Assembly: GCA_964650355.1 (NCBI GenBank)
Contig: CAZYTL010000009.1
Span: 413-64,412 of the forward strand
Source of the DNA: an uncultured Gammaproteobacteria bacterium
Lineage (GTDB): Bacteria; Patescibacteriota; Microgenomatia; CAYXHB01; CAZYTL01
Length of the DNA stretch: 64,000 nucleotides
Reading direction: 5' to 3'
Positions within the stretch are counted from its first letter, which is position 1, and every line of letters begins with the position of its first letter. Made by a program: the position numbers and the translations under genes. Of this stretch, positions 11,528-51,084 are shown piece by piece. Below the pieces are notes generated by a model, which was not told where the DNA came from, did no database searches, and saw only the letters and a program-made list of their open reading frames with translations.

Positions 11528-12343
11528 TTAGTTAAAAGGAATTTCAATTGGTCCGCCGTTCATTCCGGTGTAATGGACTTTATTTCCTGCAAAATAGGCT
11601 GGGTCACCACCAATACCGGCCGGCCCGGCGTTTTTAGCCAGAACTCTGCAGGAGATGGTACAGTAGACAACAGAAAACATATTTGGGTTACCTAAAATAT
11701 CAGGAATGGCGGCTTCTCCGGCAGTAAATACGATTCCGTCACCCGCAGGTGACCAACTTTCATCAGTGTAATTGGGAAAATATATCTGTGAAAATAATTC
11801 TGTTACTTGTGAATTGTCAATATCCACGATTGATAGGGCATTTTCGTCCGGTGCCCCACCGGTCTTGGCATACTCGTCTGAGTATCTGACTATAAATAAC
11901 CAGGCTTTATTTGGGGACAAAGAATACCTAGAAACATGCTCCACTTTGACTGACGACGGGCCGATTATGTAATCGGAGAAAAGATGATTGGAATCTTTAC
12001 AAAATTGGTAGTCTATTAAACCATCTATGTCTTTACAACCAGGAAGAGCTGGTGAGGGTGTGAATTCCGGCATCATTGTAGGTGAAATATCGGAAGCGGA
12101 AGGCAGAGGAGTTGCTGTGGGCGAAGAAGGGTCAGTCCCTCCTGTATCAGTCATGGAAAATGAATTGGTTTTGTTACTCTGTTTCCCTAATACAAACCCG
12201 ACGGCTCCGGAAATAATGGCGGTAACCAATATTGAGATAAGTAAAGAGAGCAAGTTGTTTTTCTTTGGTTTCAATTCCGGCTGCGGGTAAGGAGTGGGGG
12301 TGCCCGGTTGACTGCTTTCGTCTTTATCCATACTGATAATCAT
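11528..12343 (-). CDS. Membrane-anchored protein with Pro/Thr/Ser-rich linker and extracytoplasmic domain, hypothetical
   Basis: TM LLSLLISILVTAIISGAVGFVLG followed by low-complexity TGGTDPSSPTATPLPSAS linker. Confidence 0.55.
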   Translation of the reverse strand: MIISMDKDESSQPGTPTPYPQPELKPKKNNLLSLLISILVTAIISGAVGFVLGKQSNKTNSFSMTDTGGTDPSSPTATPLPSASDISPTMMPEFTPSPALPGCKDIDGLIDYQFCKDSNHLFSDYIIGPSSVKVEHVSRYSLSPNKAWLFIVRYSDEYAKTGGAPDENALSIVDIDNSQVTELFSQIYFPNYTDESWSPAGDGIVFTAGEAAIPDILGNPNMFSVVYCTISCRVLAKNAGPAGIGGDPAYFAGNKVHYTGMNGGPIEIPFN

Positions 12344-12636
12344 CTTATTACGATACCAATAAAAGAATCAACCTCAAAAGCAGATGAGACTTCACTACCC
12401 GAATTATTTACGCTTTGTGCGAATAAACTTCAGACATTAATAGCTAAAGTCATCCTTTAAGTAACTATTTAAAAAGCAGTTTCTAAAACTAACATACTAT
12501 ATGCTATAAAAATTATGTCTTTTAAGTTCAAACCCTGAAACTATAATTAGCACAAGGCGTATTTATCTATGGCACAATTCTGTGACTTTCGGAGTTTGTT
12601 ATTTTCAAAATATTTTCAATTAATTCTTTATGTATG

Positions 12637-12708
12637 AGCGGGAGACGGGATTCGAACCCGCGACCTTCTCGTTGGCAACGAGACATTCTACCACTGAACT
12701 ACTCCCGC
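12637..12708 (-). tRNA. tRNA-Gly (anticodon GCC)
   Basis: Reverse complement gcgggagtagttcagtggtagaatgtctcgttGCCaacgagaaggtcgcgggttcgaatcccgtctcccgc + discriminator U. Confidence 0.85.
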
Positions 12709-12965
12709 AGAAATTTGATCTCTTGATCTTTAATTATTAGCTCTATTATCTGCCTTGATTTTTTACTTTTCAATTTATATTCCGCTTGTCTGGCTTGTTT
12801 TAAAGTTTCGAACTTCTGAACAAACACCATTCGCCAAGGACCTCGTCCTTTAGTCGCTTTGCATAAATCCTGATTATGTTCTATGAGTCTCTTTTTATAA
12901 TCAGGTGTGCTCCCTATATAAAATTGTCTATTTTTAGTGCTTTGTACTATGTAAAGAAAACCCAT
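12699..12965 (-). CDS. GIY-YIG nuclease domain protein (UPF0213/YhbQ-like, ~88 aa)
   Basis: MGFLYIVQSTKNRQFYIGSTPDYKKRLIEHNQ...GRGPWRMVFVQKFETLKQARQAEYKLK matches GIY-x10-YIG plus Arg, Glu and Asn-helix positions. The ORF-track start at 12992 lies inside the tRNA-like fragment, so the start is more likely the second Met at 12965, which has GGAGAGG 11 nt upstream. Confidence 0.75.
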   Translation of the reverse strand: MGFLYIVQSTKNRQFYIGSTPDYKKRLIEHNQDLCKATKGRGPWRMVFVQKFETLKQARQAEYKLKSKKSRQIIELIIKDQEIKFLRE

Positions 12966-12968
12966 ATT

Positions 12969-13022
12969 ACCCGCGACCTCTCCGATGGCCATCGGAGCAT
13001 TCTACCACTGAACTACTCCCGC
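12969..13022 (-). pseudogene. 5' partial copy (positions 1-54) of tRNA-Gly with the anticodon arm replaced by a perfect palindrome
   Basis: gcgggagtagttcagtggtagaatg-CTCCGATGGCCATCGGAG-aggtcgcggg is identical to the intact tRNA-Gly except the anticodon arm; T-arm and acceptor 3' half are absent (replaced by taatatgggtttt). Confidence 0.6.
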
Positions 13023-13157
13023 GAATTTAGCTTTTTGCTGTTGGCTATTTGCTATTTGCTAATAGTTTTGTAAATTTTAATATTAAGAGTCTGGTTTCGG
13101 TTTGCTAACTTTTAATTTGACGAGGTCTATTTTACCAAATAAGTGCTAGTTCGTTAA

Positions 13158-14828
13158 CTAGTGACAATATTGGCTGGCAAAGTTGATATCCAGGCATCTT
13201 TGTTGGGGATCGGTACGGTAGCCACGGAAGATGATTTGGTTTAGGGGATCACGGATTTCAAGTACCTGAGTGAAGGAATATTCCTGAGCTTGATCGGGAG
13301 AGATAGCGAGTTCATCTCCGACAAGGATTTGTTGAAAGTACGGATCCTGCTCCCAGGTGATGGACCGGGTTTCTATGTTGGCGAATTGGCGCTCGGGAGT
13401 GAATTTAATTTGGTGGTAATAATCAGCGCTGATTTGGGGATCACTTGATTGCTGTAGTTGTTCGGGAGGAACTTGAAGGAAAAAGGCCAGCTCGATATAA
13501 GCAGGTTTAGTGCGGGCCTGGTCGATTAAGAAATGTTCTTGGGAATGGGTTTTGATAAATCCGGCTAATTGAGAAAATCCGTAGCCCCAGACACGGGCGC
13601 GTTCTCCGGGAAGGAGGATAAAATAGGATCGCCAGAGGAGCACCAGAGAATTAAGCAACAACAAAACAAATAAGCTGGAATATAAAATGGGTTTTAATTT
13701 GGCCGTTATATTATCAATTCCTATGCTGATGATGACCATTAAAGGTAGTAGTAAGGGTAAAGCTCTTTGAGTGGAAAAAGGGTCATTGGTCAAAGCAGCA
13801 GGTAAAGGTGTTAATAAGGTAAGTATTAGAAGATATTTGATTGATGGGTTTTTTCTGTTTTTGACTAGCAGATAAAGGCCAATCAGATAGGGAATCAGCA
13901 TCCAGGGATAAAAGACAGACAGATCAGGCAGAGAGCGCTGAGGATCAGGATCGGGGAGAAAGAAGAGGGAGCGAGGAGAAAAATAGGTTAAGTATTGGGC
14001 CAGGAACTTACGGGCTAAGGCCAGCGTCCAGGCAATCGGGTAGGGTAGCCAGGAAAAGTATTGGATTGCCTGATCTTGAATTCCCTGAGAAAAGAACAGC
14101 GCCTGTTTCTGCCACATGGCCGGAGTGAAGAGAATGGTAAGATGAGGGATTTGGATCAGGCCGGCAAATAACAGTCCTATTAAAGTAAACTTACGTGATT
14201 TAACGGGCCAGAATTTGCGGCTAAAGAAAATCAATAGACAGAGGATAAAAATCGGAACTAAATATCTTTCGGTATGGGCCCCATAAGTGGACAGAGAGAG
14301 CACTGCTAAACCGGGAACTAGGAATTTGGGTCTATCCAGGGCTTTCCAGCAGAAATATGCTCCCAGGGTAAAGAGACAAAACCCTAAATATATCTCGTAT
14401 CCTGCCCTGGCATAGAGCAGATGCCATGGAGAGATGGTCAACAAGAGGGCCACTAAATAGGGTGTGAATTTCGAACGAATAATTTTCGAACTTTTTAATA
14501 AATTAAATAAGATATAGACAACTAGAACTCCGGAGAGAGCGGAAATAAACCGAGTGGAAAAAATATTTAATCCATGGATAGCAATTACTGAAACGGTTAA
14601 GTAGGTATAGAGCGGTGGCGAATAAGTGCCGAAGAAACGAAAGAGAATGGGAAAAGATTTTCCATATTCATCTTTTCCGGTGGTTAAGACGGAATAGGCA
14701 TTATAACTTGATAAGGCTTCGTCAACGTAAAGACCGCTGGGGATCTGATCAAGACGGTAAAAGTTGAGAAAAAAAGCCACACATAGAATTAATAATAAAA
14801 ACAGAAGGGGAAGAGGATTGAATTTCAT
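13158..14828 (-). CDS. Polytopic membrane glycosyltransferase, GT39/GT83 (PMT/ArnT-like) family
   Basis: About 12 TM segments; N-terminal loop YVDEALSSYNAY has the DE motif typical of the PMT_2 family. Confidence 0.6.
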   Translation of the reverse strand: MKFNPLPLLFLLLILCVAFFLNFYRLDQIPSGLYVDEALSSYNAYSVLTTGKDEYGKSFPILFRFFGTYSPPLYTYLTVSVIAIHGLNIFSTRFISALSGVLVVYILFNLLKSSKIIRSKFTPYLVALLLTISPWHLLYARAGYEIYLGFCLFTLGAYFCWKALDRPKFLVPGLAVLSLSTYGAHTERYLVPIFILCLLIFFSRKFWPVKSRKFTLIGLLFAGLIQIPHLTILFTPAMWQKQALFFSQGIQDQAIQYFSWLPYPIAWTLALARKFLAQYLTYFSPRSLFFLPDPDPQRSLPDLSVFYPWMLIPYLIGLYLLVKNRKNPSIKYLLILTLLTPLPAALTNDPFSTQRALPLLLPLMVIISIGIDNITAKLKPILYSSLFVLLLLNSLVLLWRSYFILLPGERARVWGYGFSQLAGFIKTHSQEHFLIDQARTKPAYIELAFFLQVPPEQLQQSSDPQISADYYHQIKFTPERQFANIETRSITWEQDPYFQQILVGDELAISPDQAQEYSFTQVLEIRDPLNQIIFRGYRTDPQQRCLDINFASQYCH

Positions 14829-50952: not shown

Positions 50953-51005
50953 TTGTGGATCCGAGAGAACTCGAACCTCTGACATTCCCGATGAACATCG
51001 GGGTG
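50953..51005 (-). other. tRNA-like fragment (hairpin + T-arm + acceptor 3' strand), not a complete tRNA
   Basis: Reverse complement ccgagcacc-ccgatgttcatcgg-gaatgtc-agaggTTCGAGTtctct-cggatcca; lacks D-arm and acceptor 5' strand. Confidence 0.3.
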
Positions 51006-51010
51006 CTCGG

Positions 51011-51084
51011 TGGCCGCTGGGGGACTCGAACCCTCGACCTCTCGCATGTGAAGCGAACGCTCTAGCCAGCTGAGCTAAGCGGCC
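51011..51084 (-). tRNA. tRNA-Val (anticodon CAC)
   Basis: Reverse complement ggccgcttagctcagctggctagagcgttcgcttCACatgcgagaggtcgagggttcgagtcccccagcggcca; the 71-aa + ORF over it is spurious. Confidence 0.8.

Follow-up and report, generated by a model that had tools for sequence, protein, structure and literature searches.

A GIY-YIG mini-nuclease gene and a conserved hairpin in partial tRNA copies: a candidate selfish element of Patescibacteria

Why should a gene for a small GIY-YIG nuclease lie between an intact tRNA gene and a partial copy of the same tRNA, in which one arm has been exchanged for a palindrome? The question is raised by a 64,000-nucleotide stretch of contig CAZYTL010000009.1 (assembly GCA_964650355.1, from an uncultured member of the Patescibacteriota). 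We refer to this whole stretch as the window. We propose, with a probability of roughly 55%, that a selfish element widespread among Patescibacteria (the candidate phyla radiation, CPR) has one of its copies at this locus. The element would live on tRNA genes and comprise a nuclease of ~88 amino acids together with its cognate hairpin, NN-CCGATG-NN-CATCGG-NN. In this it would resemble the Ssn proteins, which are single-domain GIY-YIG nucleases of ~94 amino acids (Chenal et al., Nat Commun 2025, PMC11893778).

The locus is encoded by the minus strand, from 13022 to 12637. It reads, in order, tRNA-Gly fragment, GIY-YIG open reading frame (ORF) and intact tRNA-Gly(GCC); the coordinates were checked, and both order and positions agree with those given in an earlier reading of the sequence (the original prediction). 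Throughout, T denotes an intact tRNA and O the ORF. F5 is a copy of tRNA positions 1-26, hairpin, and positions 44 to ~52-61. F3 is a copy of tRNA positions ~11-20 to 26, hairpin, and positions 44-76. The parts of the locus are as follows.

12969..13022, minus strand: partial tRNA-Gly copy of the F5 type, not a tRNA gene; from alignment to the intact tRNA
12980..12997, minus strand: perfect 18-nt palindrome CTCCGATGGCCATCGGAG, at the anticodon-arm position of the fragment
12699..12965, minus strand: GIY-YIG ORF of 88 amino acids; Pfam PF01541, with a full-length match to the hidden Markov model of the family
12637..12708, minus strand: intact tRNA-Gly(GCC), host gene of the element; ARAGORN, and Rfam RF00005 with 73.5 bits and E=6e-16

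Two blocks of the fragment are identical to the intact tRNA. The first 25 nt (13022-12998) correspond to tRNA-Gly positions 1-25, with a BLAST identity of 25/25, and the last 11 nt (12979-12969) to positions 44-54. Between these blocks the 17-nt anticodon arm of tRNA-Gly, TCTCGTTGCCAACGAGA, is swapped for the 18-nt inverted repeat, as had been described. The 3' half of the T-arm and the 3' strand of the acceptor are absent. ARAGORN made 0 calls in the fragment (13022-12969), Rfam RF00005 gave 0 matches there even at E<=10, and no complete cloverleaf was found in it. The intact tRNA-Gly lies 260 nt downstream.

The ORF has no stop codon of its own. Its TAG (12701-12699) is U8-A9-G10 of tRNA-Gly, so that ORF and tRNA overlap by 10 nt, in line with the ~10 nt first estimated. 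At the other end, 3 nt (AAT) rather than 4 nt separate the fragment from the ATG at 12965, and the hairpin is 15 nt upstream of this start codon. An in-frame ATG does lie inside the palindrome, at 12992, and opens a 97-amino-acid ORF; public gene calls (P0001, 97 amino acids) begin there. As the true start this ATG was rejected, being out of frame in a tRNA-Gly relative (L005, below) and unconserved. The start that is conserved among homologues is the ATG at 12965, which gives 88 amino acids and corresponds to the MGF/VGY position. The sequence GGAGAGG (hairpin 3' half plus AGG) is Shine-Dalgarno-like and would be sequestered within the stem. A role for the fragment as promoter or ribosome-binding site, suggested originally, cannot be general: the hairpin is downstream of the ORF in many relatives.

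The palindrome had been called 'engineered-looking' and placed at a junction. It is instead a sequence- and structure-conserved hairpin common to the nuclease family, and no junction scar. The core found family-wide, CCGATG-NN-CATCGG, occupies 12982-12995 in the window, and a second copy lies at 51 kb.

50956..51008, minus strand: hairpin module of the F3 type, without ORF; from sequence and fold
51009..51084, minus strand: intact tRNA-Val(CAC); ARAGORN

The 51-kb module consists of GAGCA, hairpin CCCCGATGTTCATCGGGA (50986-51003, exact core at 50988-51001), ATGTC, T arm and acceptor 3' strand. It follows tRNA-Val(CAC) directly, with a spacer of 0 nt. Its tRNA parts resemble tRNA-Val(GAC) (compare L161) and not the adjoining tRNA-Val(CAC). 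The fragment may be what remains of a destroyed, dispensable Val isoacceptor gene. At one mismatch or fewer the core CCGATGNNCATCGG is expected 0.09 times per window by chance, and a chance palindrome was rejected on this ground; it was observed 3 times. Two matches are exact and both stand beside tRNA genes, which makes 2 hairpin copies per 64 kb as counted in the window. The third has one mismatch and lies in coding sequence. When viral contigs were searched with a looser pattern, 31/31 matches were chance occurrences in high-GC coding DNA (P-M-x-I-G) and 0 were tRNA-like.

The same hairpin accompanies related nucleases. A protein search yielded five homologues, all on short contigs; a scan of one genome per species supplied further loci, and L169 is a family member picked freely. 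In 4/5 of the short-contig homologues the ORF is preceded by a tRNA-like 5' fragment with the same core at the anticodon-arm position; these are the first four loci below.

L001, tRNA-Gly(GCC): hairpin TTCCGATGACTGTCGGAG
L005, tRNA-Gly(UCC): hairpin CTCCGATGTCCATCGGAG
L003: hairpin GTCCGATGGACATCGGAC
L002: hairpin GCCGATGTACATCGGC
L006, Saccharibacteria: tRNA-Asp locus with the hairpin
L009: tRNA-Val(UAC) locus with the hairpin
L008, Microgenomates: tRNA-Ile, the ORF being flanked on each side by a shortened hairpin
L007 (CAYWTS010000020.1), metagenome-assembled genome labelled Ignavibacteriales: tRNA-Ala, then two tandem units of ORF and 3' tRNA fragment with hairpin
L169, Levybacteria GCA_001782595.1: tRNA-Val, ORF, and a fragment with the hairpin at the anticodon position
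L010, Peribacteria: tRNA-Tyr locus with a different substitute arm

The contigs of L001 and L005 are long enough to show the ORF ending at the TAG of a complete tRNA; those of L002 and L003 stop within the 5' part of the downstream tRNA. Among the ten relatives that the protein search found at >=46% identity, the hairpin is present in 9 (L001, L002, L003, L005, L006, L007, L008, L009 and L169). The only one without it is L004, at 47% identity. In this high-GC host, positions 460-1000 hold tRNA-Val(GAC), the ORF, and a duplicate of the tRNA 3' part plus the first ~80 nt of the ORF. The layout is either a different duplication geometry or, possibly, an assembly repeat. As for L007, the full design is here found outside Patescibacteria by label, which could mean horizontal spread or a binning error. 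In L169 (1750-1815), and also in L116, a second hairpin copy, CCCCGATGTACATCGGG, stands in place of the T arm. Hence, the hairpin can substitute for more than one tRNA arm.

An F5-type fragment like that of the window is present in L001, L005, L139 and ~30 other loci. The first three are at tRNA-Gly and have the same arrangement as the window. In L001 a second, unrelated small GIY-YIG ORF (91 amino acids, 1813-2088) comes after the same tRNA-Gly, preceded by an inverted repeat, CCGTCT...AGACGG. One tRNA can thus have two different mini-nuclease genes at its flanks. The idea that the palindrome is a junction scar, or a repair footprint of the P-nucleotide kind, was rejected because the same core stands beside different tRNA species and in different phyla.

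Conservation of the hairpin has two components. The 12 inner nt hold constant even where identity between the associated proteins is down to 45-55%. Variation is found in the two outer pairs, which covary. Pair 6-23 is GC in 24 copies, CG in 16, UA in 12, AU in 5, UG in 4, GU in 1 and other in 1; pair 7-22 is UA in 31, CG in 27, GC in 4 and GU in 1. Outer-pair cells are paired in 99% of cases, compared with 87% in shuffles and 26-47% with the partner slid. Across 95 copies in tRNA contexts the outer pairs comprise 181 Watson-Crick pairs, 9 G.T pairs and 0 other mismatches; chance matches in coding DNA have many outer-pair mismatches. Judged by its conservation the hairpin is under selection, because the inner 12 nt are kept despite protein divergence and the outer pairs covary.

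Variants of the inner stem are mainly transitions that yield G.T on the tRNA-sense strand (L001 twice, L006, L009, L088 and L123). There is a compensatory change of G8-C11 to A-T in L092 and L098, and there are 3 inner A.C cases. Since the outer pairs covary and inner variants are mostly G.T on the sense strand, the pattern argues for a sense-strand hairpin, as single-stranded DNA or RNA, together with sequence-specific recognition. The hairpin is seated between tRNA positions 22-26 (GAGCR) and 44-48 (AGGTC), which gives a 28-nt site, GAGCR-NNCCGATGNNCATCGGNN-AGGTC. As single-stranded DNA, the 28-nt core of the window is predicted to fold into a 7-bp stem with a 4-nt GGCC loop (-6.2 kcal/mol).

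How widespread is the arrangement? In metagenomes the pattern GARYR-NN-CCGATG-NN-CATCGG-NN-ANRTC had at least 129 matches in at least 120 loci. Among the 129 matches listed, ~105 are in tRNA-fragment contexts and ~21 are chance matches in high-GC coding DNA. Exact cores in 643 kb of low-GC loci were in tRNA-derived contexts in 119/119 cases. An intact GIY-YIG ORF lies within 450 nt of the hairpin at at least ~50 sites, always on the tRNA strand. The neighbouring tRNAs are those for Val, Ala, Ile, Asp, Gly, Arg, Thr and Met, a list that partly reflects the search pattern. The original prediction, of a mobile cassette targeting tRNA-Gly, stands with respect to the tie to a tRNA through partial duplication and to the selfish type of the family; specificity for tRNA-Gly is not supported. 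The arrangements encountered were these.

F5-O-T, the type of the window: at least ~20 distinct loci
T-O-F3, F5-O-T-F3 and F5-T-O-F3: further arrangements with the ORF
F5-T and T-F3: without ORF, at least ~30 loci each
F5-F5-T, T-F3-F3 and T-O-F3-O-F3: tandem arrangements
full-length tRNA look-alikes: called tRNA-??? by ARAGORN, with a 4-nt anticodon

Among the matches listed, F5 is always upstream of T and F3 always downstream. Fragment boundaries fall 5-16 nt away from the hairpin on its 5' side and 8-20 nt away on its 3' side. In neither the F5-O-T nor the T-O-F3 type does the ORF supply its own stop codon. In the former the stop is the TAG at U8-A9-G10 of T, and in the latter it is the TAG of (GGT)TAGAGCG in F3. 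In the T-O-F3 type the ATG is 0-12 nt past the tRNA 3' end. Tandem arrays include three full-length, hairpin-bearing tRNA look-alikes after tRNA-Ala (L098, 630-900), two F5 before tRNA-Ala (L056, reverse strand, 1-120), two F3 (L123) and two ORF + F3 units (L007). One widely sampled member, P0175 (108 index blocks; 24 contigs read), had the same single genomic context in 5/5 places shown.

The element switches sides and tRNA species. A single protein cluster, with 55-73% mutual identity, includes both the F5-O-T and T-O-F3 types and is found beside Val(GAC), Val(UAC), Asp and Ile tRNAs. In L062, L049 and the window (Val(GAC)-like after Val(CAC)), for example, the fragment derives from another isoacceptor than the adjoining tRNA. 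Where a spare tRNA copy exists, a whole tRNA copy can carry the hairpin (L084 and L098). The ORF also decays: remnants of its 3' end persist in ORF-less spacers (L046, L065, L134 and L055). The two bases before T are 'AT' in 14/29 F5-T loci, compared with 11/62 other tRNAs. This bias fits the loss, or the gain, of exactly the segment from ATG to tRNA. The loci L045 (~6026) and L113 (~625) are 98.7% identical through tRNA-Arg(CCG) and the hairpin fragment, then diverge completely right after the fragment 3' end, which suggests a rearrangement breakpoint at the element. Taken together, the position on either side of a tRNA, the different tRNA species, the stages of ORF decay and the tandem arrays support the view that the cassette family behaves as a selfish element, formerly or currently mobile.

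Other GIY-YIG subfamilies (L055, L110 and L010) share the design of fragment, hairpin, ORF and tRNA, with different hairpins. Details of these, and of two loci with an additional palindrome, are given below.

L055, -485 to -150 relative to the hairpin (oriented): tRNA-Ala positions 1-19, CTCTACGAG-CCGTAGA-CTCGTAGAG, ORF, and tRNA-Ala, with the stop codon inside the tRNA
L110, -395 to 0: D-loop hairpin CCGCCTCTGGCGG
L120 and L130, left flanks: palindrome CCTGCCTGC-NN-GCAGGCAGG, in place of the D arm, immediately 5' of the main hairpin

The nuclease itself is small. The ORF of the window matches Pfam PF01541 over residues 1-71 (56.3 bits against a cutoff of 22.6, E=3.9e-15). Residues Y5, Y16, G18, S19, R26, H30, E62, K66 and K69 are invariant in 36 family members. 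Five of these (Y5, Y16, R26, H30 and E62) are also invariant in 45 members, and correspond to the GIY tyrosine, the YIG tyrosine, the arginine, the histidine and the metal-binding glutamate. In an AlphaFold2 model with a predicted local distance difference test score (pLDDT) of 89.5, the protein is a bare GIY-YIG core plus one C-terminal helix. The model has strands at 2-9, 15-20 and 44-52 and helices at 23-31, 55-68 and 71-80, and so has the beta-beta-alpha-beta-alpha order. A single catalytic domain spans all 88 amino acids, without a separate DNA-binding domain.

Foldseek matches were GIY-YIG domains only; BH0048 ranked 1, and UPF0213 and Slx1 proteins filled ranks 1-8; no Ssn protein was among the PDB matches. 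Among solved proteins, the profile matched BH0048 (PDB 1zg2) with E=4e-14 and EF2693 (PDB 1ywl) with E=2e-10; the Slx1 nuclease domain is next nearest by both sequence and fold. I-TevI is much weaker (E=0.018 with the single sequence, 3e-4 with the profile). The classical homing family model TIGR01453 reached 26.6 bits, below its cutoff of 56, over residues 1-36 only. From these comparisons, the protein is a single-domain nuclease nearest UPF0213 and Slx1, and not I-TevI; the link to classical homing endonucleases is not supported. A profile search at E<=1e-5 collected 3,247 clusters. Every named cluster is from Patescibacteria: Woese-, Gottesman-, Levy-, Shapiro-, Falkow-, Nomura- and Daviesbacteria, Parcubacteria and Microgenomates. 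Members are currently annotated as "GIY-YIG nuclease family protein" or "hypothetical". Named homologues of the adjacent GT39 gene indicate that the host of the window is probably of the Woesebacteria/Microgenomates type.

Other readings of the interval between fragment and tRNA were rejected. A tRNA intron or split tRNA would leave a 3' half after the ORF, which fills the interval; a complete tRNA follows instead. Rfam intron models had no match in 12300-13400, and no ribozyme core was found between the tRNA halves. A tRNA promoter within the 3' part of the ORF, TTGAAA-17-GATAAT (12773-12745, minus strand), has 10/12 matches and is 37 nt upstream of tRNA-Gly. Lack of conservation in the family, and of any TTG bias in the Leu65 codon among members, led to its rejection. 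AT-rich K-L-K and I-I codons probably gave rise to the site incidentally.

What might the element do? We propose the hairpin as the recognition site of the nuclease because the family matches Ssn in size, architecture, flanking by hairpins and the pairing of subfamilies with hairpins. By this analogy, the nuclease would recognise the hairpin in single-stranded DNA of the tRNA-sense strand and cut nearby. Breaks would be repaired via recombination between the tRNA-derived arms and a tRNA gene, the arms providing homology to a sequence present in every genome. Hairpin, ORF and a portion of the tRNA would be copied or rearranged in the process, giving rise to duplications, arrays and arm conversions, and purifying selection would let only those products survive that keep one intact tRNA. 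The ORF would ride on transcription of the tRNA and borrow its TAG as a stop. With time the ORF would decay, leaving hairpin-bearing tRNA fragments such as that at 51.0 kb.

Several points weigh against this reading. Binding and cutting at the hairpin are deduced from sequence patterns and from likeness to Ssn. Cutting beside its own hairpin would make the hairpin copy the recipient in repair, and this alone does not explain how the hairpin spreads or how an anticodon arm is replaced. The metagenome pattern demanded tRNA-like flanks, so that 'always tRNA context' is partly by design. The wobble bias on the sense strand is modest (~12-15 G.T against 3 A.C) and the copies are phylogenetically related. 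G8 and C11 covary though a 2-nt loop cannot close, and a symmetric site in double-stranded DNA fits equally well. Finally, no pair of close relatives polymorphic for presence and absence was found among the 120 loci, the nearest case being that of L045 and L113. Likewise, no empty site was found in close relatives of the window; the nearest GT39-neighbour homologues are 56% identical and differ in gene order.

A bolder form of the proposal, to which we give a low probability, is a tRNA-gene parasite that has no recombinase. Here, a hairpin nuclease with tRNA homology arms would enter any genome having that tRNA, and convert the anticodon arms (sometimes the D or T arms) of spare copies into its own hairpin. 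In the boldest version the tRNA-derived flanks would serve as a guide nucleic acid that leads the nuclease, in trans, to matching tRNA genes. SsnA is able to cut with a hairpin assembled from two separate strands.

Three other explanations have to be weighed against an Ssn-like element. The locus may contain a classical homing endonuclease gene, though without an intron. The enzyme would cut natural tRNA genes in or near the anticodon arm and repair would copy the donor, the palindrome being a cleavage-resistant stand-in that also guards the ORF against repeat recombination. A partly duplicated target next to a free-standing endonuclease gene is an established footprint, as in fungal mitochondrial GIY-YIG ORFs that carry a replacement gene end. 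Hairpin-converted tRNA copies are indeed seen when there is a second intact copy or a redundant isoacceptor (L084, L098 and the Val(GAC)-like fragment of the window), lineages tend to keep one tRNA type, and a cycle of ORF decay is typical of homing endonuclease genes. However, homing relies on insertion destroying the target, and the intact tRNA is always kept beside the element. It retains the presumed target and the arms of the fragment are identical to it, so site disruption confers no immunity. Nor does an 88-amino-acid catalytic domain bring a DNA-binding domain with which to read a tRNA gene, and the scores against I-TevI and TIGR01453 are weak. A palindrome that is simply 'not the target' leaves unexplained both 12 nt conserved across phyla and the specific hairpins of other subfamilies. 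With the tRNA unchanged beside the ORF and no DNA-binding domain in the protein, homing appears to fit less well than the Ssn-like reading, and we consider it unlikely.

A role at the RNA level is less likely again. Fragment and hairpin would then form a structured leader or trailer through which the nuclease mRNA is carried along with tRNA transcription, and would serve in processing by RNase P or RNase Z, in protection from decay, or in control of translation by sequestration of GGAG; the protein may bind the hairpin as an autoregulator. The tight packing of an ORF always co-oriented with the tRNA is consistent with this, as are the ATG 0-12 nt after the tRNA 3' end in T-O-F3 loci and the wobble pairs on the sense strand. 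With the stop inside the tRNA, RNase P cleavage would produce a non-stop mRNA. Moreover, fragment D and T arms are sometimes swapped for other hairpins with the cloverleaf-like shape kept. Conversely, since the hairpin precedes the ORF at some loci and follows it at others, no single regulatory role fits; truncated, ORF-less copies are numerous, and structure alone does not account for conservation of the inner-stem sequence. The one analogue that has been characterised, SsnA, does not bind RNA (PMC11893778). Roles at the RNA and DNA levels may coexist. The least probable alternative by far is an old, fixed and vertically inherited host gene of the UPF0213 type in tRNA operons, with the fragments as neutral scars of duplication. 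The best structure and sequence matches are indeed housekeeping-looking UPF0213 proteins, the tRNA-Gly relatives L001, L005 and L139 share the arrangement of the window, and no empty site was found (the 56% identical homologues are not syntenic). Neutral scars, however, would not keep a 12-nt core and covarying pairs at 45% protein identity, and the isoacceptor from which several fragments derive is not that of the neighbouring tRNA. The arrangement also differs between loci in side, in tRNA species, in tandem arrays and in ORF decay. A check for a fixed arrangement of this kind, proposed with the original prediction, gives a divided answer: the protein is UPF0213-like but the arrangement is variable.

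A GIY-YIG gene accompanied by a tRNA fragment that contains a hairpin was not described anywhere in the literature searched. The large and widespread family of elements made of tRNA fragment, hairpin and mini-nuclease is apparently undescribed. If the Ssn-like reading is true, a very abundant element of Patescibacteria reshapes the surroundings of essential tRNA genes. It would account for many of the pseudo-tRNA fragments in these small genomes, and for the peculiar tRNA-??? predictions whose anticodon has 4 nt. The Ssn principle, of a single-domain nuclease reading a hairpin in single-stranded DNA, would be extended to another clade, with another hairpin and in another niche. The 88-amino-acid protein and the 28-nt site would be a concrete enzyme-site pair, and a possible tool for cutting single-stranded DNA. 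A question of mobility is also raised: how an element with only a hydrolytic nuclease duplicates part of its target yet keeps the target intact.

Known systems share parts of this design. UPF0213 proteins (BH0048 of B. halodurans, EF2693 of E. faecalis, YazA and the E. coli YhbQ type) and the nuclease domain of Slx1 are built on that minimal GIY-YIG core too. Branched DNA is the substrate of Slx1, a structure-selective nuclease that has an added RING domain and needs Slx4. To our knowledge, UPF0213 genes have not been reported between tRNA copies or with flanking hairpins. Free-standing GIY-YIG homing endonuclease genes are exemplified by the Seg genes of phage T4, among which SegB is in a tRNA gene cluster. 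As here, a nuclease gene sits beside or inside a conserved target, a piece of the target is duplicated, and invasion is followed by ORF decay. In homing enzymes of the Seg and fungal types, DNA binding resides in a domain of its own; cleavage is directed at the allele that lacks the element, which the insertion or nearby polymorphisms then protect. In contrast, the protein described here has one domain, the intact tRNA persists and a conserved hairpin is carried.

The REP/BIME-RAYT and IS200/IS605 systems also have a small nuclease gene flanked by short palindromes, and many orphan hairpins. Their enzymes are HUH/Y1 transesterases that read single-stranded hairpins of one strand and can rejoin DNA. 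A GIY-YIG hydrolase cannot rejoin DNA, and therefore spread of the present element must rely on host recombination; in addition, those systems have no tRNA scaffold. Islands and prophages that insert at tRNA genes likewise use the tRNA gene as a landing site and leave a partial tRNA duplicate. They employ a tyrosine or serine recombinase, and it is the 3' end of the tRNA that is duplicated, as the att site. The present element differs in having no recombinase, in duplicating either end of the tRNA and in swapping the anticodon arm, and the whole of it is ~330 bp.

The closest parallel is with Ssn (CDD cd10448). When compared by published description rather than by the SsnA sequence, both consist of a GIY-YIG domain of ~90 amino acids alone. 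Of the Ssn genes, 71% have hairpin repeats of their own on at least one side and 42% have them on both, and Ssn homologues differ in hairpin specificity (PMC11893778). Similarly, in both systems the gene has oriented inverted repeats of 20-50 nt on one or both sides, and subfamilies pair with different hairpins. Hairpin copies outnumber genes in each, and the layout of repeat, gene and repeat resembles an insertion sequence. Ssn binds, and cuts beside, NTS/SRM repeats only as single-stranded DNA, and on one strand only; tRNA is mentioned 0 times in the Ssn paper (PMC11893778). The hosts are mainly Pseudomonadati for Ssn and Patescibacteria here. Whereas Ssn repeats reach hundreds of copies scattered genome-wide, the copies described here are tied to tRNA genes. 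Unlike Ssn, the hairpin replaces an arm of a partial tRNA copy beside an intact tRNA, and the ORF is fused to the tRNA for its stop codon.

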